Notes under the pieces: generated by a model
Told to the model about the DNA's origin: nothing
What the model saw: only the letters and a program-made list of their open reading frames with translations
Database searches by the model: none
Program-made: the position numbers and the translations under genes
In this document: positions 559-24,249 of the stretch, in pieces
How the letters are laid out: the number at the start of each line of letters is the position of its first letter
How positions within the stretch are numbered: position 1 is the stretch's first letter
Assembly: GCA_965277405.1 (NCBI GenBank)
Contig: OZ255726.1
Location: 1,129,123-1,161,122, forward strand
From: Gammaproteobacteria bacterium
GTDB lineage: Bacteria; Pseudomonadota; Gammaproteobacteria; G965277405
Reading direction: 5' to 3'
Length of the DNA: 32,000 bases

Positions 559-565
559 CCGCCCC

Positions 566-652
566 ATGCGCGTGCTTGTTACCGGAGCCAACGGATTTGT
601 CGGCAAGGCGCTTGCCGACGCGACGGCGAGGTTTTGGTCAGAGCTTCCTTAG
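566..652 (+). pseudogene. Truncated N-terminal stub (28 codons) of an NAD-dependent epimerase/dehydratase (extended SDR)
   Basis: ATG at 566 translates MRVLVTGANGFVGKALADATARFWSELP, then TAG at 650-652. VLVTGxxGFxG is the classic Rossmann NAD-binding start of proteins of ~300 aa. It is too short to appear in the ORF track. Confidence 0.55.
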
Positions 653-842
653 ATCAACGGCGAAAGCTACAGGCTCAAACACAGCCGTAAAACCGACTAT
701 AACCAGAACAGCTGGACTAACGGCCAGTAGGCGCTTTGGCATGCGTTAGCTATATGGAAAGCACCCACACCAAAGCGTCGCCTAACCTCAAAACTCAGTG
801 GCTCCTTGTTACGCCGCGATCTGGACCTCTTTTAAGCCAAGA

Positions 843-870
843 TTGACAGCTAGGAACAATACGGTAGAAT
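843..870 (+). promoter_or_regulatory. Sigma70-like promoter upstream of the sugar ABC operon
   Basis: TTGACA (843-848), 16-nt spacer, TAGAAT (865-870). It is followed by GAGGAG (891-896) and ATG at 902. Confidence 0.4.
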
Positions 871-973
871 CCTGATAAGCCAATTTAAAAGAGGAGTAAA
901 TATGACTGACTAAAACAAAAACCCGAAGAAACCTGCAAGGCGCGACTTCCTGAAGACCGTAGCGCTAGGATCT

Positions 974-1924: not shown

Positions 1925-2005
1925 GTGTTCAGGTTGTTGTAATGTTACGAACGCGGGGCGTGTTTTACCGATAAATCACGCCTCGGGCTTTGCAGGTTTG
2001 GCGCA

Positions 2006-2938
2006 ATGCACTTGATAAACAAAATACCCAACAAGGAACTCCTGTTCCTCTTAGTTGCCGCCGTTGTGATATTTTCGATATTTGCAAATCGATTTTTGAC
2101 GCCCTCGAACTTTGAGAACATTCTTACGGGTTATTCGTTTCTGGCAATTCTTGCCATCGGCCAGGGTCTGACCATCATGGTTAGAGGAATTGATCTCAGC
2201 ATCGGGTCGAACGTTGCTTTGGGGGCGATGGTGCTTTTCGATTTGACGATGATCCTGCAACTTCCAGGATATCAGGCAATACCGCTTGCGACCTTGGCTG
2301 CCTATCGCGGAGCAGTTTATGCCATTTCGGGGCGGCAACTTTTCCCCGAACTGTCTTCAAAACCCATAACCGACCCATGGATTCGTTATCTGGGTGATTT
2401 TATCGACCTAGGCGGTCTATTGCGGCTCGACGGTGTTGTGCAACTTCCCTGGATACCAGTTTCCTTTGTTGTGCTTCTTATCTTTGCCGCTGTCGTCCAG
2501 TTTGCGGTGTTTAGCACGCGCTGGGGGCTAAACCTGAGGACACTTGGGGGCAACGCGGAAGCCGCGCATCTTGCCGGTCTAAACACCAGCCTTCTGGAAA
2601 TTTCAGCCTATGTTATTTGCGGCCTAGCGGCCGGGCTTGCAGCCGTCATCCTAGTTGGACGCTTCACGACCGCGACGGAGGCGCTTGGCAGCGGCATGGA
2701 ACTAACCTCGATTGCTGCGGCCGTGATTGGCGGAACCAGGTTGCACGGTGGTGTAGGCGGGGTGTTCGGCCCGCTAATTGGCGCCTTCCTGCTTGGTGTT
2801 ATTTTGATCGGGTTGACGTTGATGGGCGTTTCGCAATTTATCCAGCAGATTTTGACGGGTACAATACTAATTGCAGCAGTTTCATATGATCGATTCCTCA
2901 TTCATCGTTCGAAAAAGCGTGCTGGGGTGACAACATGA
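2006..2938 (+). CDS. Sugar ABC transporter permease (RbsC/AraH family)
   Basis: Multi-TM protein with GIDLSIGS, LGGNAEAAHLAGLN and AAVIGGTRLHGGVGG blocks typical of CUT2 permeases. Its stop overlaps the next start (ATGA at 2935-2938). Confidence 0.8.
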   Translation: MHLINKIPNKELLFLLVAAVVIFSIFANRFLTPSNFENILTGYSFLAILAIGQGLTIMVRGIDLSIGSNVALGAMVLFDLTMILQLPGYQAIPLATLAAYRGAVYAISGRQLFPELSSKPITDPWIRYLGDFIDLGGLLRLDGVVQLPWIPVSFVVLLIFAAVVQFAVFSTRWGLNLRTLGGNAEAAHLAGLNTSLLEISAYVICGLAAGLAAVILVGRFTTATEALGSGMELTSIAAAVIGGTRLHGGVGGVFGPLIGAFLLGVILIGLTLMGVSQFIQQILTGTILIAAVSYDRFLIHRSKKRAGVTT

Positions 2939-4449
2939 TACCCTTTGCCCTGCAAGCGCTTGCGGTATCGAAGAAATTTGGCACTTTTGCAGCTCTGCAG
3001 CCGCTAGATTTTTCGATTGAGGTGGGGGAGGTGCGCGGACTGGTTGGCAGTAACGGTGCGGGAAAGACCACCTTCATCAAGGTGCTAACGGGTGCACACC
3101 GCCCGACAACTGGCACGATTTTGGTGGACGGGCACGAACTGCCGGACAATTCGACCGCTGCGCATCTGCACGCTGGTATCGCATGCATCTATCAGCATTC
3201 CAGTCTGGCACCAAATCTGACAGTTCTTGACAACCTGTATTTAGGACGTCATCCATGCGGTATCCTTGGCATAATCAATAGACAAAAATTGCGAGCGGAT
3301 GGCCTTGCGCTTCTTACCGGTCATGGAGTGGATGTTGAGCCCGACGTGCTCGTTGAGACCTTGCCCACGGTCAAACAGAAACAAATCGAAATCCTCAAGG
3401 CCTTGGCACAAAATGCCAAAATAATCCTGATGGACGAACCGACAGCGTGGCTGTCACATGCGGAGGTAAAGCGGCTCCACGAAACTATTGCCAGACTGCA
3501 AGCGCGCGGCATCGCTATTGTCTATATTTCCCATATGATAAACGAAATTTTTCAGGTCTGTGACAGTGTGTCGGTCCTGCGCGATGGAACACATGTTTGG
3601 ACCGGCGCGGTCTCTAGTACGGATCGCCCTGAGTTGATACAGCATATGCTTGGTGAATCAGCTAGCAAACTCACCGGTCATTCCAGACCTCAGGACAGGG
3701 CAAAGCGTAACTCCGGTGCGGTGAAATTGTCCAGCAAGGGGCTTTGCCGTGCCGGGTATTTTTTTGATGTCAACTTCGATCTGCATGCTGGTGAAATTTT
3801 GTGTGTTACCGGACTGATCGGAGCCAAGCGCACCGAACTTGTGCGTTGTCTATTCGGCGCAGACCGACCGGACAAGGGAACAATCGAGATCGACGGTGCA
3901 CCGGTGCAAATCAGTTCACCCAGACAGGCAATGAACCTGGGCATCGGTTTCGTTCCCGAGGATCGTCACCGAGATGGCCTTTTTTTGACGCATTCAATCC
4001 GCGAAAACCTGGTTCTTGCCGCGCTTTCCAAGCTCAGCGATGGGCTGTTGATGAGGAGCCGTGTGTTTCGTGATGTAGCTGCACGCCAGGTCAAAAAGCT
4101 AAACATCGTACCGACCGATCCAGAACGGGTGGTCGGCTGGCTCAGTGGTGGCAACCAGCAGAAAATCCTGCTCGGCAAATGGCTTGAAACCAATCCGTCG
4201 ATCATCATTCTTGATGAGCCGACGGTCGGCGTCGATGTCGGCGCCAAGGCTGAAATCTACGCAATTCTTGATGAATTGAAGCGCCGTGGCGCGGCTGTTT
4301 TGGTTGTTTCGTCGGACATTGAGGAAGTTCAAGCGATTGCCGACAGAATTGCGGTGATGGCGGATGGGTGTCTTGGCAAGTGCTTTGAGGCATCGAGTGT
4401 TACACATGCGGAATTGATAGGCTTGATCAGCGGAAATGCGACCGCATGA
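2935..4449 (+). CDS. Sugar ABC transporter ATP-binding protein with two tandem ABC domains (RbsA/MglA type)
   Basis: Walker A GSNGAGKTT, Walker B IILMDEPT, second-domain signature LSGGNQQK and Walker B IIILDEPTVGVD. The 504-aa length fits CUT2 duplicated ATPases. Confidence 0.9.
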   Translation: MIPFALQALAVSKKFGTFAALQPLDFSIEVGEVRGLVGSNGAGKTTFIKVLTGAHRPTTGTILVDGHELPDNSTAAHLHAGIACIYQHSSLAPNLTVLDNLYLGRHPCGILGIINRQKLRADGLALLTGHGVDVEPDVLVETLPTVKQKQIEILKALAQNAKIILMDEPTAWLSHAEVKRLHETIARLQARGIAIVYISHMINEIFQVCDSVSVLRDGTHVWTGAVSSTDRPELIQHMLGESASKLTGHSRPQDRAKRNSGAVKLSSKGLCRAGYFFDVNFDLHAGEILCVTGLIGAKRTELVRCLFGADRPDKGTIEIDGAPVQISSPRQAMNLGIGFVPEDRHRDGLFLTHSIRENLVLAALSKLSDGLLMRSRVFRDVAARQVKKLNIVPTDPERVVGWLSGGNQQKILLGKWLETNPSIIILDEPTVGVDVGAKAEIYAILDELKRRGAAVLVVSSDIEEVQAIADRIAVMADGCLGKCFEASSVTHAELIGLISGNATA

Positions 4450-5375
4450 GCACTTTTGCGGACAAATTTTCCAGCCTTGCATTGCCTATTGCGGTTGTAG
4501 TAACCGCTCTTGTGTTTGGACTGGTTGAGCCAGCCTTTTTGTCGTCGGGAAACCTGACGGGCATCGTGCATCGTATGGCGACCATTGGCATTATGGCAGT
4601 TGGCATGACGTTTGTGATCATGACAGGCGGCATTGACCTTGCGGTCGGTCCTGTTATGGCGCTCGCCGGGCTTGCGTCGTATTTCTCACTTCAGGTCGGC
4701 ATTCCCCTGCCATTGTCAATCGTGGTCGGCGTGTTGAGCGGTGCGGTTGTCGGTGCAATCAATGGCACAGCAATAGCGTTTTTCAGGTTGCCTGCGATAA
4801 TTGTGACCCTTGGCATGTTGTCGATCGTGCGTGGCGTGGCGCTGACGATCGGCGGACCGACCCTCCACCAGATCAGCGACCAACCTGCGTACACATTCAT
4901 AGGTACAGGGTCGTTTTGCGGCCTTCCGGTTTCGGTGTTGATTTTTGCATTGCTGGCTTTGATTGCAGTGCTGGTCCAGAAATACACCATCTACGGCCTT
5001 CAGATTTCGACCCTTGGTGACAATGAAAGAGCGTCGGAACTGTCCGGTCGCCCCACCCGATTGCTGAAATTGTCAACATATGTTGTGTGTGGAGTGACTG
5101 CAGCAATTGCGGGTATTATCGAGAGCTCACAAGTTTACACCGCGTCGGCGAACTTTGGTGAGTTTGGCACTGAACTCGATGTGATTTCAGCCGTCATACT
5201 TGGCGGGGCAAGCATGTTTGGCGGAAAGGAGTATGTATGGAACACAGTGCTGGGTGTCCTATTTCTGGGTGTGATCAATAGCGGGCTGAACATTTTGAAC
5301 ATTCCCGTGGATGTTCAGCTAATGGTCAAGGGCGCTATAATTGTTTTGGCGATCAGCGTTTCTTTGCATAAGTAA
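4446..5375 (+). CDS. Sugar ABC transporter permease (RbsC/AraH family), second copy
   Basis: GIDLAVGP, INGTAIAFFRLPAIIVTLGMLSIVRG, LGDNERASELSG and AVILGGASMFGG blocks. There is a 4-bp ATGA overlap with the ATPase gene. Confidence 0.85.
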   Translation: MSTFADKFSSLALPIAVVVTALVFGLVEPAFLSSGNLTGIVHRMATIGIMAVGMTFVIMTGGIDLAVGPVMALAGLASYFSLQVGIPLPLSIVVGVLSGAVVGAINGTAIAFFRLPAIIVTLGMLSIVRGVALTIGGPTLHQISDQPAYTFIGTGSFCGLPVSVLIFALLALIAVLVQKYTIYGLQISTLGDNERASELSGRPTRLLKLSTYVVCGVTAAIAGIIESSQVYTASANFGEFGTELDVISAVILGGASMFGGKEYVWNTVLGVLFLGVINSGLNILNIPVDVQLMVKGAIIVLAISVSLHK

Positions 5376-5928
5376 CGGGAGGCTAGCATAGTGAGGTCCT
5401 GTCGATATAGTGCAGCCCTCAAATGTTCTGGCATTGTGGGTTATGCAACACTCAAATCTTCGAGGTGATACCAATGCAGAATTCCGACAGTTGTCTGGCT
5501 TGGAAAAAGATGCAAGACCATCGCATTAACATATTTTTTCATAGAAAATATCTGCATTCCTCATTACTCAGAAAATCATCGTATGCGGAGTATCAGCAGG
5601 TCACAATCTTAGTTTTAGTGATGCTTTGTGAGGAAATTCCCGCTTGTGAACTCGATTGTTTGGCAGACCTCATACATTGGCAAGACCTGCGCCAACACCT
5701 GCGCATTGTGCCTAGAGACAATATCAGTATGGTTACAATATTTATTACCAACATGGTACAACTTAGCGGATGAAGCAGTGAGCCATGCAGTTGCTCGCGC
5801 TTTAGTTTGCATGAAGTTTGGTAATTTTACTCTTGCAGGCAGCTAATGCGACAATGTGTGTCCGCTTGCGGAACAAGGTAAACACATAATCTTTTCAAAG
5901 CCCTCCTTAGCATTTACACTTAGGGAAT

Positions 5929-6573: not shown

Positions 6574-7140
6574 TTAGTAAATTAAATTCGCTCTGCGATT
6601 TAACTTCCACGCACCTTCATTATCAGCACTATCAACTGGTCGTAACTCACCATAACTGATTACATTAATATTTTTTTGCCGTACGCCACGAATACGTAAA
6701 TACCTAGCTACAGCTTCACCGCGACGATTACCTAATGCGTTATTATATTCAATCGTGCCACGATCATCAGCATGACCTTCGATAGTTACTTCTAATTCCG
6801 GCTGTGCAAGCAAACGAGATAAAATCACTTCTGCATGCGCATCTAACGCTTCAAACGCAATTCCCTTGAGTTCATCTTGATCATAGTCAAAGTAATATGT
6901 TTTAACATCTAAAAGTTCAGCCGTTCTTCGTGATTCTTCACTTGCTTCACTTGCTTCACTTGCTTCAGTGGCAGCAGTTGCTTGTTCGGTTGGTGTTTCT
7001 TGCTGTAGTGTGGCTTCTTGCTCTACAGTTTCAGCAACACTACCACTATCTTCGGTGTCACTACTTTTTACTTGATTTTGCGCGCAAGCACTAATTCCAG
7101 CTAAAAACACAAAAAACAAAATGGTTTGCAGTATTTTCAT
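6574..7140 (-). CDS. Peptidoglycan-associated lipoprotein-like protein (OmpA C-terminal domain)
   Basis: Lipobox LAGISAC after a hydrophobic leader, then an acidic low-complexity linker. OmpA/Pal C-terminal domain: EGHADDRGTIEYNNALGNRRGEAVARYL ... NRRANLIY. Confidence 0.85.
   Translation of the reverse strand: MKILQTILFFVFLAGISACAQNQVKSSDTEDSGSVAETVEQEATLQQETPTEQATAATEASEASEASEESRRTAELLDVKTYYFDYDQDELKGIAFEALDAHAEVILSRLLAQPELEVTIEGHADDRGTIEYNNALGNRRGEAVARYLRIRGVRQKNINVISYGELRPVDSADNEGAWKLNRRANLIY
6941..6967 (-). repeat. 9-bp in-frame tandem repeat x3 inside the pal-like gene
   Basis: CTTGCTTCA x3 on the plus strand, encoding (EAS)3 within ATEASEASEASEES. Confidence 0.9.
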
Positions 7141-7154
7141 TATATTTTTCCTAG

Positions 7155-7721
7155 TTAATATTTTAATTCAACTCGTCTATTTTGCATCCAAGCAGTTTCG
7201 TCATTCCCTTTGACTGCTGGGACCTCTTCACCATAGCTTACAACACGTACTGCTGTTTTGGGAACACCTCGATGAACTAAATACGTACTTACAGCAGCAG
7301 CCCGTCTTTCTGCTAAGGCAATATTATAGCCTTTAGAGCCACGATCGTCTGTATGTCCTTCAACTATAACAACAAGATTCGGGTTACTCAATAACGCATG
7401 TGTCATATTTTGCACATGAGCATCTAAAGTAGCGAATGCTTGTGGGCGTATTTGACTACTGTTCGTAGTAAATAAGAATACACGCTGTTGTAAGTTTGAG
7501 TCTGAGCCGAGTAATTCTAGGGATTGTGTAATCAAATAATCTGTTGGACGGAGTTCATCATCAAAACCAAACTCAGAACCTTGTGTAATGTCTTGTTCGG
7601 GAAAGTTTTGATCAGAAAAAAAGCTGTTGTTAGTATTGTCATCAACTGGAATAACAACTGCGCAACTCCCAATGGACGTCATCATAACAAAAAAAGCCAG
7701 TCGAATACTGGTGTCAATCAT
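7155..7721 (-). CDS. Second OmpA/Pal-like lipoprotein (tandem paralogue)
   Basis: Starting at internal Met 16 gives MIDTSIRLAFFVMMTSIGSC with lipobox SIGSC. The ORF could extend to 7766. C-terminal domain: EGHTDDRGSKGYNIALAERRAAAVSTYL ... NRRVELKY. Confidence 0.8.
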   Translation of the reverse strand: MIDTSIRLAFFVMMTSIGSCAVVIPVDDNTNNSFFSDQNFPEQDITQGSEFGFDDELRPTDYLITQSLELLGSDSNLQQRVFLFTTNSSQIRPQAFATLDAHVQNMTHALLSNPNLVVIVEGHTDDRGSKGYNIALAERRAAAVSTYLVHRGVPKTAVRVVSYGEEVPAVKGNDETAWMQNRRVELKY

Positions 7722-7940
7722 AACTATACTGCCATTGGCTTTGTGAACGAGAATATATTTTAACAAGATGCTTAAGTGTTCTGTAGTAAGAAAGCTGATT
7801 TCCTATACAAATTATAATTGTCAGGTAGGTTATTAGCATATTATTGTGTGAAACTCTAGGGAAAATGTAAATATCAAAATCTGATAATCTCTTGGCAATA
7901 ATAGTAGAAAGTTTACAAACTCTTGGCACTATACTAACAG

Positions 7941-8024
7941 GCCCGGATGGTGGAATTGGTAGACACTCAAGACTTAAAATCTTGTGGACGTAAGTCCGTG
8001 CCGGTTCGAGTCCGGCTCTGGGTA
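7941..8024 (+). tRNA. tRNA-Leu (anticodon UAA)
   Basis: Hand-folded cloverleaf. Acceptor GCCCGGA/TCTGGGT, anticodon arm CAAGA-CTTAAAA-TCTTG (anticodon TAA), long variable arm GGAC..GTCC, T arm GCCGG-TTCGAGT-CCGGC. CCA is not encoded. Confidence 0.9.
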
Positions 8025-8238
8025 TCATTTTTTGTTGCAATAGTATGGGGTGCATCCAGATTAGTATGTAGTATTTTGCACAAAGGTTACAATTTTGAGC
8101 GTGTAGTTTGTGTGTAATCATTTATGAAAAAACACAGGCCCGCTTGTTGTGATGCGTTTAGAGCCGCTTTTTTTTATAAGCTTTAGCATTATGTGTGGTT
8201 TGTTTGTGTTGGCGCGGTTCAGTCGTCGGTTAAGAAAC

Positions 8239-8507
8239 CTTTGATTAAGCCCATGATGGGCGAGACGGAGAAAAAAACGCTGATAAAACTTAAGCGAAGT
8301 GCGCGCTAACGCTTGGTGGGTCTTGCCAAGTGCTGCAACGAGGCAGCGCAGCGTTTTTTCCCGTTGTTGTGTTGAATATACTTTCGGTTTGCGGCAGCGG
8401 CACTTGCTGTGTTGCATCCCATGGCGTATATGCTATGCCATGCGCTTAGCGCCTTGCAATCCTCAGCAAATGCAGGCAAACTCGCGCCATAAGCGAGTTA
8501 ATCAAAG
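8239..8507 (+). repeat. MITE-like TIR-bounded repeat, copy 2
   Basis: Ends are CTTTGATTAAGC (8239-) and GTTAATCAAAG (-8507). The core is alignable by eye to copies 1 and 3 at roughly 75-85% identity with indels. Confidence 0.8.
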
Positions 8508-8589
8508 ATTACATAGGGCAGCGGTAATGCCTTGTAATCAACGCCAGTTCGATACAAACTTGGCGTATTTGCAATTATTAATATATTAT

Positions 8590-9576
8590 ATGCAATACCC
8601 TCAAACTAGAATGCGCCGGCTACGCTCTGACGTATGGATACGGAAACTGGTACAACAAACATCGTTAAGCGTGCATGACTTTATCTACCCTGTATTCGTC
8701 CACTATGACCCAAACCATCGTCAGCCGATTGCCGCGCTGCCTGGGATTGAGCGGATGGGTAATACAGTGTTGCTGCGTCATTTGCAGCCATTGGTACGGC
8801 AAGGGTTGCTGGCGATTGCAATATTTCCTGTTATTGATGCTAACAAAAAATCAGCAGATGCTGCTGAGGCTTGGAACCCTAACGGATTGGTGCAACAAGC
8901 AGTCGTTAGTGTTAAAAAGCACTTTCCTCAACTTGGGGTGATTACTGATGTTGCCTTGGATCCGTATACCAGCCACGGTCAAGATGGGCTCATGGATGCG
9001 CATGGATATATCGTCAATGACAGCAGTTGCGATGTGTTAGTGAAACAGGCGTTGTCGCATGCAGATGCAGGTGCTGATATAGTTGCACCGTCTGATATGA
9101 TGGATGGGCGGATTGGGTTAATTCGCACTGCTTTGGAGGAACATGCGTATCCATTAGTTAAAATATTGGCATATAGTGCGAAATATGCATCAGCATATTA
9201 TGGACCGTTTCGCGCAGCGGTTGGTTCAGTACAAAGCCTTGCTGGTGCTAATAAATCAACGTACCAAATGGATATCGCCAACAGTGCCGAAGCGCTAAAG
9301 GAAATTCAATTAGATATCGATGAAGGCGCTGATATTGTTATGGTAAAACCGGCGCTACCGTATCTGGATATCATTCAGTCGGCACATAACATATTTAAAA
9401 CAACACCTGTGTTTGCATATCAAGTGAGTGGTGAGTATGCGCAACTCCAAGCTGCAATAGCCAATGGCTGGCTTGATGATGCGGCTATTGTCGAAGCATG
9501 TATGGCGATAAAGCGTGCGGGGGCGAGTGCAATGTTGAGTTACTTTACTCCGAAAATTTTTTCATTGCTGGCGTGA
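8590..9576 (+). CDS. hemB: Porphobilinogen synthase (delta-aminolevulinic acid dehydratase)
   Basis: MQYPQTRMRRLR... is a typical HemB N-terminus. Active-site lysine contexts SAKYASAYYGPFR and IVMVKPALPYLD are present. DVALDPYTSHGQDG is the Asp-rich (non-Cys, Mg-type) metal site. The start is set at ATG 8590 because upstream ORF codons lie inside repeat copy 2. Confidence 0.9.
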   Translation: MQYPQTRMRRLRSDVWIRKLVQQTSLSVHDFIYPVFVHYDPNHRQPIAALPGIERMGNTVLLRHLQPLVRQGLLAIAIFPVIDANKKSADAAEAWNPNGLVQQAVVSVKKHFPQLGVITDVALDPYTSHGQDGLMDAHGYIVNDSSCDVLVKQALSHADAGADIVAPSDMMDGRIGLIRTALEEHAYPLVKILAYSAKYASAYYGPFRAAVGSVQSLAGANKSTYQMDIANSAEALKEIQLDIDEGADIVMVKPALPYLDIIQSAHNIFKTTPVFAYQVSGEYAQLQAAIANGWLDDAAIVEACMAIKRAGASAMLSYFTPKIFSLLA

Positions 9577-10604
9577 GTAGTTTGCATGCGCTAAATGACG
9601 TTATTATTTCTCAACAGAACACTCTGGCTGTTCCAGCAATAGCAGATGCGCTTGTGGTTGTGAGCCACTTGCAAGATGTCCAACAATTGCCAGCCTTACA
9701 AGAGCGTCTGCAGTTGCCAATACTGCTGCTCGGTAGTGGGAGTAACGTGGTATTACCACAACGGTTGCATCGGCTAGTTGTTAAGTTGGCTGTTGGCAAA
9801 ATGAGTGTTCACGCAGAAGATGATGCGTCGATCATCATTGATGTGGCAGCGGGCTATAACTGGCATCAACTCGTCTACACGGCGACACAACGCGGCTGGT
9901 TTGGTTTAGAGAAGTTAGCGCTTATTCCAGGGACTGTTGGTGCAGCTCCTTTGCAAAATATAGGCGCATATGGCGCATCATTTAGTGATTGTTGTGTGGC
10001 GGTAGAATATTATGATTTGCAGCAGCAAACGTGGTGTTGGCGTGCTAGTGAGCGTTGTGAATTTGGATATAGAACGAGTTGGTTTGCCCACCAACGTCAG
10101 TTGATAGTTACTCAAGTCAGGTTGCGATTAGCTAAATTTGCAGCTGCTATTCAGCCTGAATATCAGCAGTTGCGAGATAGGTGTGGTGACCAGCTTGCGC
10201 CGATGGATGTGTTGCATGCGGTCATTGCCTTGCGTACAAGAAAACTTCATGACCCGCAGCGCACCCCAAATGCTGGGAGTTTTTTTCACAATCCTGTTGT
10301 CGATGTGGCGATTGCAGAGAATATTTGCACTAGGTTTCCACAAATCAAATCACATGTTCGTCAACAACAAGTTGTTATCCCTGCAGCTGCACTTATTGAA
10401 CACGCTGGTCTCAAAGGTTTTTGCGATAGTGTGTACAATGGTGCTGCAGTGTCGGGGCGACACGCGCTGTGTCTTATCAATTGTGGCCATGCAACAGGGA
10501 ATGATTTTTTGCGACTTGCCAAGCACATCCAGCGCACAGTATTGGCGCAATTTGGGGTATTGTTGACGATAGAACCGCAGGTAATTCAGCCCGTCCAACA
10601 ATGA
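9573..10604 (+). CDS. murB: UDP-N-acetylenolpyruvoylglucosamine reductase
   Basis: LLGSGSNVV, LALIPGTVGAAPLQNIGAYG, FGYRTS and NAGSFFHNP match MurB blocks. GTG 9573 overlaps the hemB stop (GTGA) and gives 343 aa, against ~342 aa for E. coli MurB. ATG 9498 would lie inside hemB. Confidence 0.85.
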   Translation: MSSLHALNDVIISQQNTLAVPAIADALVVVSHLQDVQQLPALQERLQLPILLLGSGSNVVLPQRLHRLVVKLAVGKMSVHAEDDASIIIDVAAGYNWHQLVYTATQRGWFGLEKLALIPGTVGAAPLQNIGAYGASFSDCCVAVEYYDLQQQTWCWRASERCEFGYRTSWFAHQRQLIVTQVRLRLAKFAAAIQPEYQQLRDRCGDQLAPMDVLHAVIALRTRKLHDPQRTPNAGSFFHNPVVDVAIAENICTRFPQIKSHVRQQQVVIPAAALIEHAGLKGFCDSVYNGAAVSGRHALCLINCGHATGNDFLRLAKHIQRTVLAQFGVLLTIEPQVIQPVQQ

Positions 10605-16400: not shown

Positions 16401-17105
16401 ATGCGACTAAACTATAAATTTCAACATGCCGTGCTGCATGGCATAGCTGATAAATTACGTAATGTTCGACTGTTTGCTATAATAAGCGCAGGTTTTTTGG
16501 GATTGGTTTCAGGTTGTTCATTGCTTGGTCTTGCTGATGGTGCGGAAAATACGACGCCTGCTGACTCGTTGGCTCAATTATTAGGTAATCAGCTCGGCCA
16601 ACAAAAAACCAATCAACGGGTTTCAGCTGCTTCTATATATGGTGAGAAAGGCATTATTTTATATGATCCTTTAGGGAATGGTACGGATTTCGTGTTGGAC
16701 CCATCTGGGCGGATTGTGAAATCTGATTTAGACGCGGCAGAAACAGGATTAGAAATTAACGATTTGGAACGACGTTTTTTTCGTTCCAACAAGCATCTGA
16801 TTGATGCCGAAAGTTTATTTTATTCTGGTTTGTACGAAGAAGCACTCAACGAAACAAAAGCATCAATTGAGCTTACTCCGCGTTCAGCAAAAGCTTATGC
16901 AATAAAAGGTTCATTGGAATATAAGCTTGGGCGGCTAGAGCGTGCTAGAGCAGCTTGGATGGTTGCATTAAAGCTTGACCCAAAGATGAAAAGCGTGTCA
17001 CGCGCCCTCTATTTAACTTCTATTCCTGATGCAAATCAAAGAATAGCTGCAACAAGTGGCAGCACGGATAGCGCAGTAGTAGTTGGTGGGGGCACAGAAC
17101 AGTAA
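16401..17105 (+). CDS. Lipoprotein with C-terminal TPR-like repeats
   Basis: Lipobox GLVSGC after a hydrophobic stretch. TPR-like helices: YSGLYEEALNETKASIELTPRSAKAYAIKGSLEYKLGRLERARAAWMVALKLDPKM. Confidence 0.7.
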   Translation: MRLNYKFQHAVLHGIADKLRNVRLFAIISAGFLGLVSGCSLLGLADGAENTTPADSLAQLLGNQLGQQKTNQRVSAASIYGEKGIILYDPLGNGTDFVLDPSGRIVKSDLDAAETGLEINDLERRFFRSNKHLIDAESLFYSGLYEEALNETKASIELTPRSAKAYAIKGSLEYKLGRLERARAAWMVALKLDPKMKSVSRALYLTSIPDANQRIAATSGSTDSAVVVGGGTEQ

Positions 17106-17195: not shown

Positions 17196-19208
17196 ATGGG
17201 CTGTAATATAATGCCTCAAAATATACTGGCAATATTCATTGGCGTAGTGGTAATGCTCTCAGGTCAAGCATGGGCTGTAATTATTGATGTGGAAAATCCA
17301 GCTGTTGACGAGGTGTTTTTTGAAAAAGAAATGGAAAGCAGGCTTTCTCGTGATATTCAAGCATATCTTGGACATGATAGGTTTATTTTAGGTATTGATT
17401 TTAAGCTTTCTTCGTTTGCAGGCTTCGGGAGGCAAGGTAGCGATGCTGGTGATAGCGATGCTGGTGATAGAGTGGTTGTTCGTGAAATAACAACGTCATT
17501 GCCTGGTTTACCTGGTGCAGAAGTAAAATTTCAAAAAGAATTAACGGGTGAAGATATTAATAATTTGCGGGAAAATCTGCGCTTAGATGAAAGCTCGCTG
17601 GGGTCTAGAAGTCCGCTAAGCTCTGTGCTACAGCCAAGCACACAAAGTGCTAATGCGCTTGCAGGAACTGGAACTGAAGTGTTTCTTGTGTTAGATACTA
17701 CGGTGACAACGGCGCAGGAAAACTTTATCCGCGATGTAATGTCTAGAAAGTTGAGTATAGATCTAAACAAAGGTGATAGTATTCAAATCGTTCGATCTAC
17801 TTTTGAACGTGAAAGTAATAGTTCAAATACGAGCAATCAACAGCCTAATCAATTTGGAGAAAATCCTGCGCAGCAACCGCCATTATCTGGAAATCAAGTC
17901 CCCGTTGCAGGTGCAGGCGCACCAACTACTGACTCGGGAAATGTAAGTGATTCAGTAACTGATCCAACTTTGTTGCAAAAAATCAATGAACTTGAACAGG
18001 GGTTGAAGAAAGATTTTATTGAGAAAAATTTAGTTTGGATTTTACTCGGTGGCTTTGGTTTTTTATTGTTTTTTAGTCTGATATTGTTTTTGGCATCACG
18101 CAAACCGGCGCAATCAATGATGCCAGCGTATCCGCCGATGGCGCCGCCGCAAAGTCCTAGAACAGGCGCTAGTAATGCCGAAAAAAATAATGTTGATCAA
18201 ATTGAGATTGAGGGAATGCGTCATCGTGCGGTAGTGGCAGAAACTAAACGTGAGATTGCAGCGATAGGTTTAGCATCGCCCAATATTGTAAAACAAGAAA
18301 TGAACAATCTGTGGGCACAAAACCGCATGGATACGATTGCTGCTGTATATACTGGTCTTGGAAATTCAATTTATGAGTCATTGTTTGGTGGACTGTCTGC
18401 ATCTCAATCTTCAGAAATTAGTGCGTATTTATCAGAACGTGAAATCACATCGACACAATTAGAGGCACAAGTTAAAGATTTTTATTCTCGATCATTACGT
18501 GCTGCGAACGACCCTGATGGTAAGCATAAGTCGCATTCATTTGCATTCTTAAATAAAATGAGAATAGGGTCGCTGCAATTCTTGTTAAAAAATGAAAAAC
18601 CACGGGTCAAAGCCTTGGTTATTTCACAGCTTGAAAATGAAAAGGCAACGACTGTATTAAATAGTTTTGAGGATAAAGATCGAAGTAAAGTTGTTCATGA
18701 ATTAGCTCAATTTGAAGACTTTCCGTATGAGACATTTAATGAAGTTGCGCAATTATTGGTTAGAAAAGCTAAAAAAATTCCTGCTGTTAATAATGTTGGG
18801 GCAAATGGTATAAATATTTTAATTAATTTATTGGATAATATGGATAGCAGTGATGAAAGTCGCTTAATTGAAGAATTGCAAAATATGGATCCTGAGTTAC
18901 ACGATAAGCTTAAAACATTGTATTTTACTTTTAATGATCTAAGTAAAGCGCCGCTGCGTGTTATGGGTGAAGCGCTACTAGAAGTTGATAAAAGCACTAT
19001 CGCTATAGCGTTAATGCAAGCATCTGATGTTATTAGAAAACGTGTTTTAAGCAGTATGCCTAAGCGTGTTTCCCAGACTATTGAGGTTGAAATAAAAGAA
19101 ATACAAGACACTATTAAAAACGAACAGATTCAGTCTGCTCGAAAAGTGTTGTTACGCAGTATGCGTGCTTTAGTACGCAATGGTAAAATTGATATGAGTA
19201 AAATCTAA
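17196..19208 (+). CDS. Membrane-anchored FliG-like protein. Layout: N-terminal signal/TM, ~250-aa periplasmic region, TM helix, Pro-rich linker, then a cytoplasmic FliG middle + C-terminal-like domain
   Basis: N-terminal hydrophobic ILAIFIGVVVMLSGQAWA; TM at residues 279-300 (LVWILLGGFGFLLFFSLILFLA); linker PAYPPMAPPQSP. Residues ~455-670 carry FliG-like blocks: LLKNEKPRVKALVISQL (cf EHPQtiAliLs), GANGINILINLLD (cf GGxxxAAeILN), LYFTFNDL (cf MFvFEDl), and SSMPKRVSQTIEVEIKE...ARKVLLRSMRALVRNGKI (cf nMSkRaaemlkeDle...aqqkIv...RrLeeeGeI). The start could instead be ATG 17211. Confidence 0.8.
   Translation: MGCNIMPQNILAIFIGVVVMLSGQAWAVIIDVENPAVDEVFFEKEMESRLSRDIQAYLGHDRFILGIDFKLSSFAGFGRQGSDAGDSDAGDRVVVREITTSLPGLPGAEVKFQKELTGEDINNLRENLRLDESSLGSRSPLSSVLQPSTQSANALAGTGTEVFLVLDTTVTTAQENFIRDVMSRKLSIDLNKGDSIQIVRSTFERESNSSNTSNQQPNQFGENPAQQPPLSGNQVPVAGAGAPTTDSGNVSDSVTDPTLLQKINELEQGLKKDFIEKNLVWILLGGFGFLLFFSLILFLASRKPAQSMMPAYPPMAPPQSPRTGASNAEKNNVDQIEIEGMRHRAVVAETKREIAAIGLASPNIVKQEMNNLWAQNRMDTIAAVYTGLGNSIYESLFGGLSASQSSEISAYLSEREITSTQLEAQVKDFYSRSLRAANDPDGKHKSHSFAFLNKMRIGSLQFLLKNEKPRVKALVISQLENEKATTVLNSFEDKDRSKVVHELAQFEDFPYETFNEVAQLLVRKAKKIPAVNNVGANGINILINLLDNMDSSDESRLIEELQNMDPELHDKLKTLYFTFNDLSKAPLRVMGEALLEVDKSTIAIALMQASDVIRKRVLSSMPKRVSQTIEVEIKEIQDTIKNEQIQSARKVLLRSMRALVRNGKIDMSKI
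17439..17468 (+). repeat. Perfect 15-bp in-frame tandem duplication inside the FliG-like gene
   Basis: AGCGATGCTGGTGAT x2, encoding SDAGD-SDAGD in the periplasmic region. Confidence 0.9.
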
Positions 19209-20014: not shown

Positions 20015-20713
20015 ATGGATGTGTATCCAGAAGGGGGGGTAGCTACAAGACTACAATCAAACAGCAGTGGAAAAGATGCTAGGAGGAATGAGCCTTGGCT
20101 GTTAACGTATTCAGACACGATTACTTTGCTTTTTACTTTTGTGCTGATAATTTTAAAAATTTCTTCTATTGATGTGAATAAGGCAGAAGAATTACGTGAA
20201 GGTTTATCTCAAACATTTTTAAAAAAAGATATTTCAACTGCATTTCAATCATTTTCAAAAGAAATTGAGCAAGTAACAAACATTAATCATGATTTACAGG
20301 TTGATATCACCAGTAGATACGTGACTATAGAGTTGACAAACTCAAGTATATACGATGTTGGTAGCGCTGATATTGTGAATAAAGAGATTAAAACTATACA
20401 GTCAGTAGTTGATATTCTAATACAAGACCCATACGCAAGGTATACATTAGAAGTTGAAGGACATACTGATGATGTTCCAATTAAAAACTTGGAGTTTCAG
20501 TCCAATTGGGAACTTTCAACTGCTCGAGCAACAAACATTGTTAGATATTTAGAAGAAAATGGTGTAAGTAGAGAACGGATGAAAGCAATTGGATACGCAG
20601 ATTCTAAACCATTGCCTGAGACCTTGGATATTAATGGCAATATTGTTCCTGAAAAAAGACCGTTAAATCGTAGAATTTCAATCCGTATTTCACGCTATAA
20701 AATTAATGACTAA
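20015..20713 (+). CDS. motB: MotB-like stator protein with OmpA-like peptidoglycan-binding domain
   Basis: EPWLLTYSDTITLLFTFVLIIL is the MotB TM helix, with the conserved Asp at codon 34 (20114-20116). C-terminal LEVEGHTDDVPI...SNWELSTARATNIVRYL...NRRISIRI is the OmpA-like domain. It starts 3 bp after motA. Confidence 0.85.
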   Translation: MDVYPEGGVATRLQSNSSGKDARRNEPWLLTYSDTITLLFTFVLIILKISSIDVNKAEELREGLSQTFLKKDISTAFQSFSKEIEQVTNINHDLQVDITSRYVTIELTNSSIYDVGSADIVNKEIKTIQSVVDILIQDPYARYTLEVEGHTDDVPIKNLEFQSNWELSTARATNIVRYLEENGVSRERMKAIGYADSKPLPETLDINGNIVPEKRPLNRRISIRISRYKIND

Positions 20714-21662
20714 AAGAGTTCATCATCAACAAATACAATCACTACTAAACGCTTTACAAAATAATATTGTTGGACAAAAAAAACTATTAGAAAGATTGAT
20801 CATTGGATTATTATCTGATGGACATATATTAGTTGAAGGCGCGCCAGGGTTAGCAAAATCGCTAACTGTTGCAACATTAGCAAAGCTTATAAACTGTGAT
20901 TTTCAGCGTATTCAATTTACTCCAGATTTACTCCCCAGCGATATTACAGGGAGTGAAATCTACAAGCCGCAAACTCAAGCATTTAGCTACCAAAAAGGGC
21001 CAATATTTAGTAATTTAGTGTTAGCTGATGAAATTAATAGAGCACCAGCAAAGGTTCAATCAGCCCTGCTTGAAGCAATGTCTGAACGCCAAGTAACCAT
21101 CGGCAATACAACGTATACGTTACCAGCTTTATTTCAGGTCATGGCAACTCAAAATCCCATTGAACACGAAGGTACGTTCCAACTGCCAGAAGCACAGCTT
21201 GATAGGTTTATTATGTATGTGGCAATTGATTATCCTTCTATAGATGAAGAGTTAATGATTATGCGACTTAATCAAAAAAAGGCGGTTGAGATCACACCAG
21301 TTATTGACATTACAACTATTTTGCAAGCACGTGAGGAAGTCCGTGAGATGTATATTCACGAAAGATTATTAATGTATATTGCAGAAGTTGTCCATGCTAC
21401 GCGTACCCAAAAAAACAGAACAAGTGGCAATCAAGGCTATATAGAAATAGGTGCAGGACCAAGAGCAAGTATTGCGTTAGCAACACTGTCACGTTCTCTT
21501 GCATATCTAAGAGGTCAAGACGAGGTCACTCCAGATATTATCCAAGAGCTGTGTTATGACGTGCTCGCCCATCGAATCATTTTAAATTTTAGCTCAGAAA
21601 ACACAGTTCAACAAAAATACCAAATAATTGACGAGGTACTGAGTAGCGTGAAAATTGTATAG
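20706..21662 (+). CDS. moxR: MoxR-family AAA+ ATPase
   Basis: Walker A EGAPGLAKS, Walker B plus downstream LADEINRAPAKVQSALLEAMSERQVTIG, then ATQNPIEHEGTFQLPEAQLDRF. Length 318 aa, with an 8-bp overlap with motB. Confidence 0.9.
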   Translation: MTKRVHHQQIQSLLNALQNNIVGQKKLLERLIIGLLSDGHILVEGAPGLAKSLTVATLAKLINCDFQRIQFTPDLLPSDITGSEIYKPQTQAFSYQKGPIFSNLVLADEINRAPAKVQSALLEAMSERQVTIGNTTYTLPALFQVMATQNPIEHEGTFQLPEAQLDRFIMYVAIDYPSIDEELMIMRLNQKKAVEITPVIDITTILQAREEVREMYIHERLLMYIAEVVHATRTQKNRTSGNQGYIEIGAGPRASIALATLSRSLAYLRGQDEVTPDIIQELCYDVLAHRIILNFSSENTVQQKYQIIDEVLSSVKIV

Positions 21663-22460
21663 ATGTTTCAAGTTTTAGAAAAGCTGTCAACAGGGTGGTT
21701 AATAAATTCCGAATATATCCAAGCAGCGTATGCGTATCAGCGCAAGGTCAGTAAAAGTAGGCTACATCATACTTATGGTGCCAGCAGATTAACAAAAAAA
21801 GGAAAAGGTTCTGATTTTGATCATTTAAGGGAGTTCACTAGCAGTGATGATATTCGACATATTGCATGGAAAGCTTCGTTACGATCACAAAAAACATATA
21901 CAAAAGTATTTTCTGATGAGATTGAAGATAAGATAAAAATTTATGTGATGTTGAATGCCGAGTTGTCATTTGCTATAAAAAAAAGATCTGCAGCATTTGC
22001 TTTATATATAGCACTCCACAGCGCTGTAGAAACATGTTATAAAAAAAATATGCAATGTGAAATTTTGCTTATTCATGGCAACAATGTCATCGAGAGAGCC
22101 AAAATACGTATGCAGAAAGAAATTATCAGAACACTTAGTAGCCTTGCTAAGAAAATCAACGCTGCAATGTGTAAGTATAAAACTGGTGATTTATTTAAAA
22201 TGGATGATATAAAGATTACTCCGCATTCAATTGTTCTTACAGGTGCGCGTAATATACAGCATTACGGATTAGATAGCAGCACCCTACTGGGCAGCACACT
22301 ACTGGTAGTAGATGAAGAACCATTGCAACGAATAAGAATTATTGCCCAAACAAATTCTGGTGTGAAACAGGTTAATGTCGGCGCAAATGCCATAGACTGC
22401 GCCATCGTTGCAGATGACACTGTCGAAGATATCTATGCAAAAGTGCAAAGCTGTATATGA
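21663..22460 (+). CDS. DUF58 domain protein (usual MoxR partner)
   Basis: GKGSDFDHLREFTSSDDIRHIAWKASLRSQKTYTKVF matches the DUF58 core (GxGxEF..R.Y..GDd.R.IdWk.tAR). The ATG directly abuts the moxR TAG. Confidence 0.8.
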   Translation: MFQVLEKLSTGWLINSEYIQAAYAYQRKVSKSRLHHTYGASRLTKKGKGSDFDHLREFTSSDDIRHIAWKASLRSQKTYTKVFSDEIEDKIKIYVMLNAELSFAIKKRSAAFALYIALHSAVETCYKKNMQCEILLIHGNNVIERAKIRMQKEIIRTLSSLAKKINAAMCKYKTGDLFKMDDIKITPHSIVLTGARNIQHYGLDSSTLLGSTLLVVDEEPLQRIRIIAQTNSGVKQVNVGANAIDCAIVADDTVEDIYAKVQSCI

Positions 22461-22870
22461 AAGATGTTCATCAACCATATAATTTATATCTTTATTTAAA
22501 TATTACTTGGATTGCTATTGCAATTGTTTTCATGGTATTTCTTATAATAAGTTATATATATTTACAACGATATCTAGCAAATAGAAAAATACAGCAAACT
22601 ATACGTAGGTTGCAAGATATAGAGAGCGATGAGGTTTTTGCATTAAACATTGTGCAAGCCATCAAGCATTCAATGGATGAACATGGGATACAAAGCAATA
22701 TGCTCCATGGCGAACGCTTGTATAAAACCTTGCTTAAACATTACAAATACAAGGCAACCATCACATTAAGAGACTTTTTAATATCAACATACAAAGAACA
22801 AAAAATGATTCAGAGACATTTAGTTCTAAAAGAAATTGAGTTACTAATAAAAAGCAATGTTAGCAATTGA
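22457..22870 (+). CDS. Small single-pass membrane protein, in the position held by DUF4381-type proteins in Bat-like operons
   Basis: TM helix ITWIAIAIVFMVFLIISYIYL followed by a basic stretch. It has 4-bp and 14-bp overlaps with its neighbours. The family assignment is by position only. Confidence 0.55.
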   Translation: MKDVHQPYNLYLYLNITWIAIAIVFMVFLIISYIYLQRYLANRKIQQTIRRLQDIESDEVFALNIVQAIKHSMDEHGIQSNMLHGERLYKTLLKHYKYKATITLRDFLISTYKEQKMIQRHLVLKEIELLIKSNVSN

Positions 22871-23783
22871 TTGGCCGCTATTTTCTATTGTAGTAATTGG
22901 TTGCTATGTATTGTATAAATACCGAAAAACCATCCGCGTTACTAGCATCTGGTATCCATTTGTAATAGATGAGGCAACTAAAAAATCTCACTATCGTTCG
23001 TCCTTTTTATTTGCAGTGTGCTCTATATTGCTGATTGGCGGAGGTATGCGCCTGCAAAAAATAGATGAAACTGTTAGTATTAAGCAGAATTATAGGGACT
23101 TAATACTAGCAATAGACGCATCAGATAGCATGCGAGTACGCGATATGGAAATAAATAATCAGCTTTTTAGCAGATACGACGCTGTAAAATATTATATGGA
23201 TAAGTTTATCGATAAACGTCAAGGTGATCGATTAGGGTTTGTGATATTCGGATCAAAGGCATATATTCAAGCACCATTAACAGCCGATTTATCGGTGATA
23301 AAAACATACCTAGAAGAGTCATATATAGGCATTGCTGGGCCAAAGACGGCAATTGGTGATGCACTTGCCTTAGCAGTCAAACAAAAAGACAAAGATGACA
23401 CGAATCAAGCAATTATTTTAATAACAGACGGCTCAAATACATCAGGAACAATTGATCCATATCAAGCCGTAGCAATTGCAAAAAAAAAGAAGATTAAAAT
23501 ATATACCATAGCTATTGGCAATAGACGATTTTCACGAGACATAGATTTTAGGTTTCTGCAAACCGCTGCAGCATCAACCAACGGCAAGCATTTCTATGCC
23601 AGTAACGCAAATGAATTGGCATCTATTTATGCGCAACTAGATCGACTAGAACAAAATATCGAACAGTCTTCAACGTTTAGCAAGTATTTTGAGTTGTACT
23701 ATTGGTTTGTATTAGCCTTCATTATTGTGTTTATAGTGGGTTATATGTTTACTCCGTCAAGGCGTGTCAGGAAACATATATAA
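22857..23783 (+). CDS. BatA-like membrane protein with von Willebrand factor A domain
   Basis: Two N-terminal TM helices and one C-terminal TM helix. MIDAS motif LILAIDASDSM and AIILITDGSNTSG. Confidence 0.85.
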   Translation: MLAIDWPLFSIVVIGCYVLYKYRKTIRVTSIWYPFVIDEATKKSHYRSSFLFAVCSILLIGGGMRLQKIDETVSIKQNYRDLILAIDASDSMRVRDMEINNQLFSRYDAVKYYMDKFIDKRQGDRLGFVIFGSKAYIQAPLTADLSVIKTYLEESYIGIAGPKTAIGDALALAVKQKDKDDTNQAIILITDGSNTSGTIDPYQAVAIAKKKKIKIYTIAIGNRRFSRDIDFRFLQTAAASTNGKHFYASNANELASIYAQLDRLEQNIEQSSTFSKYFELYYWFVLAFIIVFIVGYMFTPSRRVRKHI

Positions 23784-23814
23784 AACAACTTTAGGCAATT
23801 TAATGCGAATCATA

Positions 23815-24249
23815 ATGGATAATAATCAATTAAAAATTGCTGGATTTAGTTTGATTGAATTGCTGATTGTAATGGTGATTGTTGCTGTACTCAGTGTTGT
23901 CGCCTTGCCAGTATACCAAACGTATGTAGGGCGAGCAAAGTTTACAGAGGTTATTCAAGCTACCGCACCATATAAAATTGCCGCAGAAATTGCATGGCAA
24001 AATACTGCAACGAGTCTAACTGATCTTGATGCTGGATCCCATGGAATTCCAGATGCAACAGGAAGTAATGACCGCGAAATAAAATCTATCACTATGGTCG
24101 CTGGAGTTATTACCGCAACAGCAAATACTGTCGTAGATGAAAACAACGCAGGAGTAACTTACGTACTTCAGGCCCACGATTTTTCAGGTGGAATCATATG
24201 GAAGGTTGATGCTGCCAACAGTAGCTGTAAAAATCTTGGCTATTGTTGA
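23815..24249 (+). CDS. Type IV pilin (prepilin with N-terminal methylation motif)
   Basis: Leader MDNNQLKIAG, then the cleavage/methylation motif G|FSLIELLIVMVIVAVLS. The C-terminus is CKNLGYC (Cys pair). Starts at GTG 23764 or ATG 23803 would give atypically long leaders. Confidence 0.85.
   Translation: MDNNQLKIAGFSLIELLIVMVIVAVLSVVALPVYQTYVGRAKFTEVIQATAPYKIAAEIAWQNTATSLTDLDAGSHGIPDATGSNDREIKSITMVAGVITATANTVVDENNAGVTYVLQAHDFSGGIIWKVDAANSSCKNLGYC

Follow-up and report, generated by a model that had tools for sequence, protein, structure and literature searches.

In a 32,000-nucleotide stretch of the genome of a Gammaproteobacteria bacterium (assembly GCA_965277405.1, contig OZ255726.1, positions 1,129,123 to 1,161,122 of the forward strand; hereafter the window), one gene encodes a protein in which a ring-building module of the flagellar membrane-ring protein FliF and the flagellar rotor protein FliG appear as a single polypeptide. 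The open reading frame (ORF), called at 17196–19208 on the forward strand with an ATG start and 670 residues, is as given in an initial annotation made from the letters of the window; a public database protein that is 100% identical (P0001) starts at Met6 (nucleotide 17211), giving 665 residues, and lies on a 2.17-Mb contig. That annotation had proposed that the roles of FliF and FliG are covalently fused here, and Pfam, profile and Foldseek comparisons support the fusion, with the FliG part probably including the N domain. The features it listed are real and lie well beyond what chance would produce, and none of the outcomes that it had named as speaking against the fusion was observed. It had not mentioned the neighbors that give the fusion its meaning, a dedicated MotA/MotB stator pair and a tetratricopeptide repeat (TPR) lipoprotein. 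The evidence supports a single-pass inner-membrane protein composed of a probable signal peptide, a FliF ring-building motif 3 (RBM3) with an insertion at the collar position, a linker, a transmembrane (TM) helix and a probably complete FliG, and we think it rather likely that a ring of this protein together with its own MotA and MotB forms a small rotary machine apart from the flagellum.

The FliG middle (M) and C-terminal (C) domains are established in the fusion. Pfam assigns FliG_M (PF14841) to residues 460–529 (E 1.5e-13, 51.2 bits against a cut-off of 25) and FliG_C (PF01706) to residues 559–666 (E 2e-19, 70.2 bits against a cut-off of 23.3), and a phmmer search of the sequences of solved structures retrieved FliG alone, with full-length Aquifex FliG (3hjl, E 2.7e-21) as the top match. 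Residues 458–667 align with Aquifex FliG 119–327; the gapless FliG alignment claimed from about residue 455 therefore stands as a FliG match but not as gapless, since it contains one single-residue gap. An AlphaFold2 model of residues 340–670, built from an alignment of 21 family members, is all-helical, with a mean predicted local distance difference test (pLDDT) score of 87.8, and its top Foldseek matches in the PDB are full-length FliG chains, among them 8wiw (E 6.5e-10, 307 columns over a 310-residue chain), 3hjl (E 2e-9, 319 columns over a 321-residue chain) and 8umx (317 columns over a 328-residue chain). The rival identity that the initial annotation had singled out for this region, MgtE_N, was rejected: it scores 19.1 bits, below its cut-off of 25.9, no CBS or MgtE domain is found, and Foldseek places MgtE cytoplasmic domains at E 1.2 and 3.4 as against 6.5e-10 for FliG.

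The FliG N domain is likely to be present too, in which case the entire FliG has been fused. The single FliG_N (PF14842) match of the window protein is a cross-match across the M domain; two relatives (P0048 and P0033), on the other hand, match Pfam FliG_N positions 4–73 at the homologous place (P0048 with 34.4 bits, cut-off 25), which maps onto window residues 377–444, and for a profile of residues 340–457 (A5) four of the five top PDB matches are FliG residues 5–65, at weak E values of 0.012–0.03. Ahead of this region stand two conserved helices (residues 340–376), at the place expected for the FliF tail in a head-to-tail fusion, and by position they may be its counterpart.

Residues 1–455 of the window protein match no Pfam family, and the relationship of the periplasmic part to FliF emerged only once the family had been widened by an exhaustive profile search. 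A narrow profile (A2), built from the periplasmic domains of the nine closest relatives, retrieved no FliF from the PDB sequences, its sole match being a chance one to an adhesin (E 1.5), while a word-indexed homologue search yielded no matches with the wide N-domain alignment and 12 relatives when run with a single sequence. The exhaustive search, over 1.84 billion representatives at a threshold of E ≤ 1e-3, found the N-domain in 62 clusters at 50% identity, mostly of 550–780 residues. FliG_M was detected in 42 and FliG_C in 41 of the 47 relatives scanned, and 16 of the 47 matched YscJ_FliF_C (PF08345), with a best E of 2.1e-12 and with P0030 (33.4 bits) and P0027 (24.4 bits) above the cut-off of 23.8. 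The YscJ_FliF_C match spans profile positions 3–147 of 147 and falls in the periplasmic region of proteins that also carry FliG_M and FliG_C.

A profile of 32 family N-domains (A4) matches Salmonella FliF 234–441 (E 3.4e-6) and Vibrio FliF (E 6e-4 and 5e-3). The two periplasmic blocks that the initial annotation had called FliF-like, which are the most conserved parts of the periplasmic region, fall in this alignment on the two halves of RBM3: the first block is the helix and first strand, and the second is the closing strand-helix-strand, where the FliF signature RGD..V....F also lines up. Between them, an LPGLP motif, invariant in alignments A1 and A2 and nearly invariant among the 32 sequences, lands in the FliF collar loop. 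The homology chain is tight, because the window protein reaches 78 bits, split between residues 32–72 and 96–205, against a hidden Markov model (HMM) made only from six distant members positive for YscJ_FliF_C. In an AlphaFold2 model of residues 28–207 the core consists of a helix-strand followed by a strand-helix-strand, at a pLDDT of about 80, broken by a disordered insertion, and the top 12 Foldseek matches of this model are all FliF RBM3 (probability 0.99–1.0, root-mean-square deviation 2.0 Å, 23% identity). FliF shows the same division, its β-collar separating RBM3a from RBM3b, and it is RBM3 and collar together that form the S ring (PMC11481574). On the strength of these comparisons we regard residues 32–205 as homologous to the RBM3/β-collar (S-ring) module of FliF. 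The FliF resemblance holds for this ring-building module and not for RBM1 and RBM2 (PF01514, YscJ_FliF), which were matched neither in the window protein at E ≤ 0.1 nor among the families listed for the 47 relatives, and for which there is no room, because just about 30 residues lie between the signal peptide and RBM3.

The two hydrophobic stretches and the two linkers described in the initial annotation are borne out by a Kyte-Doolittle scan (residues 9–31 and 277–302) and by the translation (a Q/N/P-rich stretch at 206–276 and a Pro-rich stretch at 302–322). Residues 9–27 had been read as either a signal peptide or a first TM helix. The hydrophobicity is evident, and the segment ends at AXA-type sites both here (QAWA|V) and in aligned relatives (SQAWA|A, AAQA|A, HSQA|V and VYSA|P), so that a cleaved Sec signal peptide is probable and a TM helix less so. 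With a signal peptide and one TM helix, the FliG part is predicted by sequence rules to lie in the cytoplasm, because the second hydrophobic segment is trailed by Arg/Lys.

The fusion gene is embedded in a conserved operon. We examined 16 loci (L001–L016) from Bermanella, Thalassolituus, Oceaniserpentilla, Saccharospirillaceae and other Gammaproteobacteria and three loci of a closer clade (L017–L019), which lie on 1.8-Mb contigs and show 44–50% identity. When the window proteins were searched with phmmer against all ORFs, the order TPR, fusion, MotA, MotB was found in all 18 complete loci (the window, the three small-genome relatives and 14 Oceanospirillales loci, Bermanella among them), where the stop codon of one gene often overlaps the start codon of the next; in the window, 11 bp separate fusion and MotA genes and 3 bp separate MotA and MotB genes. 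More distantly, L024 has TPR, fusion, MotA and MotB, L025 has fusion, MotA and MotB, and in L020 and L016 the order is MotA, MotB, a 372-residue protein, TPR and fusion.

The best PDB matches of the two stator proteins are flagellar, MotA/PomA for the A subunit (E 1.7e-25) and MotB 6ysf for the B subunit (E 8.8e-28). Among NCBIfam models, the flagellar MotP/PomA/MotA and MotD/MotB models rank first, far below their cut-offs (best 128.6 bits against 394 for MotA, 147.4 against 283 for MotB), and the FliG equivalog TIGR00207 scores 86.8 bits, far below its cut-off of 226.7; judged by these scores, the FliG part and MotA/MotB are a divergent paralogous set. No flagellar Pfam family was found in the other window ORFs of at least 120 residues, nor among the annotated genes that flank the module in nine related loci, where export, rod, hook and FliM/FliN genes are likewise lacking.

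Charged residues of the torque helix, whose conservation across homologues the initial annotation had singled out for checking, are maintained in 18 loci. R624 of the fusion corresponds to R281 of E. coli FliG and is kept as Arg or Lys, and E630/E632 correspond to D288/D289 and are kept as E-[DE] (EVE here, KEEM or REDL in relatives); K641 lies at or near the position of R297. The equivalent of the MFxF hinge, YFTF (576–579), is invariant in the same 18 loci. In canonical FliG the EHPQR motif binds FliM; in the window protein it is replaced by E-K-P-R ... E, within a family pattern of E-[KD]-[PAT]-R ... E, and this degeneracy fits the absence of FliM nearby. On the stator side, MotA R92 and E100 correspond with the same spacing to E. 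coli R90 and E98, the former being Arg in 18 of 19 loci and the latter acidic in all 19, and the channel aspartate of MotB, D34, is invariant in the 19 loci. The MotA Arg/Glu pair and FliG R281, D288 and D289 have been named as stator–rotor contacts (PMC12505986).

What the sequences show is which domains are present, that the operon is conserved and that the coupling residues are kept; from this we infer ring formation, rotation, partners and a biological output, as follows. Copies of the fusion protein would assemble through RBM3 into a ring in the membrane carrying one FliG per subunit, like the MS ring and the upper C ring, and the co-transcribed MotA/MotB units would anchor to peptidoglycan. 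Ion flow at the Asp34 channel of MotB would lead the R92/E100 charges of MotA to push the torque helix of FliG, so that the ring turns, and the RBM3 ring, with its LPGLP-bearing insertion, would pass the rotation on in the periplasm. Recipients of the rotation may be the upstream TPR lipoprotein and, in relatives that are free-living, a barrel-like protein of the outer membrane as well. Because RBM1/RBM2, export gate, rod and switch are lacking in the loci examined, such a machine would not be a flagellum and its output would be periplasmic; it would probably be unidirectional, there being no FliM/FliN switch. A covalent fusion is compatible with ring assembly, because engineered FliF-FliG fusions assemble: Vibrio FliFG fusions form 34/35-mer rings (PMC11481574), and a functional Salmonella FliF-FliG fusion has been reported (as cited in PMC11481574). 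Bermanella marisrubri makes ordinary flagella (PMC6248924), and because of this the module in Bermanella is presumably an additional system beside the flagellum.

Several observations weigh against such a machine. The window protein itself has no match to YscJ_FliF_C at E ≤ 0.1, because of which its link to FliF depends on family profiles and transitivity. The AlphaFold2 model of residues 28–207 is poor overall (mean pLDDT 56), its Foldseek matches reach an E of only about 1e-2 over 47 columns, and the insertion at the collar position is predicted to be disordered and is poorly conserved save for LPGLP. A 45-position profile (A7) of the helices before the FliG_N-like region retrieved no FliF tail from the PDB sequences, only designed coiled coils. 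One distant clade (L023) has no recognizable MotAB within 7 kb, the sole such case among the distant loci examined.

Some of the same features would suit a non-rotating force transducer, in which monomers or small oligomers are gripped at FliG by a rotating MotA pentamer and pass energy through the TM helix and the periplasmic domain to the outer membrane, in the manner of ExbBD-TonB or TolQR-TolA and with no large ring. The disorder predicted for the collar-position insertion, the long flexible periplasmic linker, and the presence of periplasm-spanning or outer-membrane-associated partners (the TPR lipoprotein and, in relatives, the barrel-like protein) are what such a device might have. We nevertheless consider it unlikely: RBM3 is a ring-building motif whose known cases form 30- to 35-mer rings (PMC11481574), the stator belongs by type with flagellar MotAB/PomAB and not with ExbBD/TolQR, and the torque helix and hinge of FliG show the conservation of a rotor that turns.

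An intact torque helix on a membrane-anchored FliG, in Bermanella carriers that are flagellated (PMC6248924), could also be that of a decoy or brake that sequesters or regulates flagellar stator units and so modulates swimming. This is improbable for a module that has its own MotA/MotB pair with matching conservation, that is retained in genomes of 1.8–2.2 Mb, and in which a periplasmic RBM3, a TPR lipoprotein and an outer-membrane partner would be superfluous. Nor, although flagellar proteins are the closest characterized relatives of all four proteins, do we see more than a slim chance that the fusion is the genuine, divergent FliF/FliG of a (second) flagellar system, given that it lacks RBM1/RBM2, the part of FliF that holds the export gate, that the motif for FliM is degenerate, that the equivalog scores of FliG and MotA are far under their cut-offs, and that it is not accompanied by genes for export, rod, hook, FliM or FliN in the loci examined. 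A decaying flagellar gene remnant, functionless today, is scarcely credible, since the small genomes of the window clade and a recent in-frame duplication within the disordered loop are set against intact frames, a gene order that is strict in 18 loci of clades only about 30% identical, the retention of invariant functional residues, and an N-domain spread over 62 clusters with FliG domains kept in 42 of 47 scanned relatives.

By the presence of RBM1/RBM2, the EHPQR motif, orthologue scores and a flagellar neighborhood, the fusion is not an orthodox FliF or FliG, yet it most likely works like a rotor core. The flagellar motor is the standard example of a rotary machine, and to our knowledge its rotor (FliF/FliG) and stator (MotAB) have so far been found only within flagella built around a type III export apparatus, and in the literature on the topic we found no description of an RBM3-FliG fusion family. 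An operon of a minimal rotor, a matching stator and envelope partners suggests that the core which generates torque can exist, and be under selection, by itself, which bears on the modular assembly of the flagellar motor or the re-use of its parts. We put at about even the chances that the module is a self-contained ion-driven rotary motor working in the cell envelope through the TPR lipoprotein (and, in free-living relatives, the barrel-like protein), that it represents the first flagellar rotor–stator core to operate with no type III export apparatus, filament or rod, and that it offers a living model of how the flagellar motor arose from modules or was put to new use. With one rotor protein, a fixed 1:1 stoichiometry and no switch complex, it would be a very small rotor–stator pair for structural and single-molecule work, and it points to an uncharacterized energy-dependent envelope process in marine Gammaproteobacteria and their small-genome relatives. 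Bermanella is cultivable, and the prediction is hence testable.

Features of the fusion gene and its neighborhood. Positions are nucleotides of the window, or of the named locus where a locus is given; residues are those of the 670-residue protein for features within the fusion.
Feature	Position	Strand	Basis and remarks
TPR lipoprotein, 234 aa, first gene of the module	16401..17105	+	Pfam TPR_2/TPR_11; lipobox L-V-S-G-C in all loci
FliF(RBM3)-FliG fusion protein	17196..19208	+	670 aa, or 665 aa from Met6 (nt 17211)
Predicted Sec signal peptide, residues 1–27, cleavage after QAWA	17196..17276	+	Hydrophobic window 9–31; AXA-type sites at the same place in homologues; rule-based
RBM3a, helix and first strand, residues 32–72, RLSRDIQAYLGHDRFILGIDFKL	17289..17411	+	Salmonella FliF 234–270 (A4); AlphaFold2 helix 8–31 and strand 36–41, pLDDT ~80; distant-member HMM 42 bits
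Variable insertion at the FliF β-collar position, residues 73–160; LPGLP 102–106 (nt 17499–17513)	17412..17675	+	Low pLDDT; aligns with the FliF collar-loop region
SDAGD x2, perfect 15-bp tandem duplication within the variable insertion	17439..17468	+	Without counterpart in 8 aligned homologues
RBM3b, strand-helix-strand, residues 161–205, EVFLVLDTT...GDSIQIVRSTFE	17676..17810	+	FliF 395–441 including RGD..V....F; Foldseek 47 columns; distant-member HMM 38 bits
Q/N/P/S-rich low-complexity periplasmic linker, residues 206–276	17811..18023	+	Translation; homologues vary in its length and sequence
Transmembrane helix, residues 279–301, followed by R/K	18030..18098	+	Kyte-Doolittle maximum 2.6; position conserved in all homologues
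Pro-rich cytoplasmic linker, residues 302–339	18099..18212	+	Translation and homologue alignment
Two conserved helices, residues 340–376, at the site expected for the FliF C-terminal FliG-binding tail	18213..18323	+	AlphaFold2 helices 2–21 and 23–35 of the model, pLDDT ~90
FliG N-domain-like region, residues 377–444	18324..18527	+	P0048/P0033 FliG_N matches; profile A5; Foldseek 319 columns against 321-residue FliG
FliG middle domain, residues 460–529; EHPQR motif degenerate (E-K-P-R ... E)	18573..18782	+	Pfam FliG_M; alignment to 3hjl; motif comparison
FliG C-terminal domain, residues 559–666, with YFTF hinge (576–579) and torque helix	18870..19193	+	Pfam FliG_C; FliG alignments; Foldseek
Torque-helix segment, residues 619–641: R624, E630, E632, K641	19050..19118	+	HMMER alignments to FliG structures; at or near E. 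coli R281, D288/D289 and, presumably, R297
MotA/PomA-type stator A subunit, 263 aa	19220..20011	+	Pfam MotA_ExbB
MotB-type stator B subunit, 232 aa: plug, channel Asp34, OmpA-like peptidoglycan-binding domain	20015..20713	+	Pfam MotB_plug, OmpA
MoxR AAA+ ATPase, DUF58, DUF4381 and VWA genes	20706..23783	+	Pfam; start/stop overlap with MotB and each other
Secreted 343–377-aa protein	L012:8196-9329; L020:6227-7345; L024:5466-6497; L023:6229-7338; same position in L001–L016		

The perfect 15-bp tandem duplication reported in the periplasmic part, AGCGATGCTGGTGAT x2, was found at exactly the position claimed, 17439–17468, and encodes SDAGD twice. It lies in the least conserved part of the fusion protein, within the disordered collar-position insertion, is genome-specific, and is missing from 8 of 8 aligned homologues; it is most simply a recent slippage event with no functional meaning.

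The residue at position +2 of the TPR protein is Ser or Ala across loci, by which the lipoprotein would be targeted to the outer membrane under the E. coli rule. Its identity as a known flagellar scaffold was rejected, the PDB matches being only generic or designed TPR repeats. Most of the related loci (Bermanella-type, L016, L020, L023 and L024) encode, beside the genes for the TPR protein and the fusion, a secreted protein of 343–377 residues, of which the window and L017–L019 have no copy. Its CxxC-bearing N-domain has sub-threshold Pfam matches to FlgO (E 1.2e-3) and to CsgG (E 0.02); its C-terminal part is β-rich, resembles an outer-membrane barrel and ends in Phe. The protein probably belongs to the machine as one more component. 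Downstream of MotB, MoxR and DUF58 genes, which in the window clade overlap the end of motB, are common to the window and L017–L019 and are not found at that place in the 14 Oceanospirillales loci; the MoxR-DUF58-DUF4381-VWA genes may belong to the same transcription unit as the motor module in the window clade only. In the window a type IV pilin-like gene comes after the MoxR, DUF58, DUF4381 and VWA genes (20706–24249 in all). Scans for promoters and terminators returned nothing exceeding shuffled expectation.

Other genes near the module or elsewhere in the window are noted for completeness. A Sel1-repeat/SPOR (peptidoglycan-binding) protein precedes motA in two distant loci (L016:5114-6532 and L020:3191-4663), and a Wza/Wzc/Wzy-type polysaccharide export cluster comes after the fusion gene in one of them (L020:10614-16819). 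A 469-residue ankyrin-repeat protein is encoded a few kb from the operon on 1.8-Mb contigs (L017:5334-6743 and L018:5332-6741) and, together with the small genomes, hints at a host-associated lifestyle of the window clade. Tandem OmpA-family genes of 188 and 203 residues, with a 135-residue ORF that has no Pfam match, occupy window positions 6574–8121 on the reverse strand; they match MotB weakly, via the OmpA domain. At 8299–9576, a 425-residue ORF with an ALAD (HemB) domain from residue 103 overlaps the MurB ORF (9498–10604) by about 80 bases, and the true starts of these ORFs are probably further downstream than the ORF calls. Positions 1–5400 have a G+C content of 0.52–0.54, as against 0.34–0.47 elsewhere in the window, and encode a sugar-type ABC transporter (periplasmic binding protein, two permeases and ATPase); this segment may be an acquired island.

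Compared with the core of the flagellar MS and C rings and its MotAB/PomAB stators, the module has the same RBM3 split at the collar position, followed by a TM helix and then by N-like, M and C domains of FliG in FliF-FliG order, as well as the same torque-helix charges, [M/Y]FxF hinge, MotA Arg/Glu pair, and MotB plug, Asp and OmpA domain. It differs in being one polypeptide where the flagellum has two, in lacking RBM1 and RBM2, in having a probable cleaved signal peptide in place of a first TM helix, in its degenerate FliM-binding motif, in the absence of export, rod, hook, filament or switch genes nearby, and in its scores far under the NCBIfam cut-offs.

The closest described case is the FliF-FliG protein of Chlamydiaceae (Bergeron 2016, PMC4768692), likewise a natural fusion, found where a complete set of flagellar genes is lacking, in which a short FliF with signal sequence, RBM-type periplasmic domains and TM segment is joined to a cytoplasmic domain resembling FliG. 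In contrast to the protein described here, the chlamydial fusion has about 330 residues, with an RBM2-like domain, an unassigned RBM-like region and only a segment like the FliG middle domain, and it is proposed to act with the injectisome, no MotAB partner having been described for it (PMC4768692). By that published description, RBM3, a probably complete FliG including the torque domain and a co-encoded stator set the present family apart. Engineered Salmonella and Vibrio FliF-FliG fusions (PMC11481574; PDB 8z4d) have the same head-to-tail order, but are full-length and work within a normal flagellum; both halves of the window protein match 8z4d.

Two further kinds of system each share one side of the proposed machine. 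SpoIIIAG of the sporulation channel, as cited in two papers, has an RBM3-like fold with an inserted β region and forms a large ring without a flagellum (PMC11481574, PMC4768692), but it is not coupled to FliG or a stator, and it was not matched in PDB profile and Foldseek searches of the periplasmic domain. ExbBD-TonB, TolQR-TolA, GldLM, AglRQS and ZorAB, conversely, pair an engine of the MotAB family with a non-flagellar envelope partner, as the module does here (classification as in PMC12505986). In that recent survey of the relatives of MotAB, flagellar ion transporters are set apart from generic ones, and FliG is named a single time, in its role as rotor contact in the flagellum (PMC12505986). 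Whereas ExbBD, TolQR, GldLM, AglRQS and ZorAB make up a non-flagellar branch without FliG, the engine of the present module belongs by best match to the flagellar branch, and its partner is a FliG rotor.

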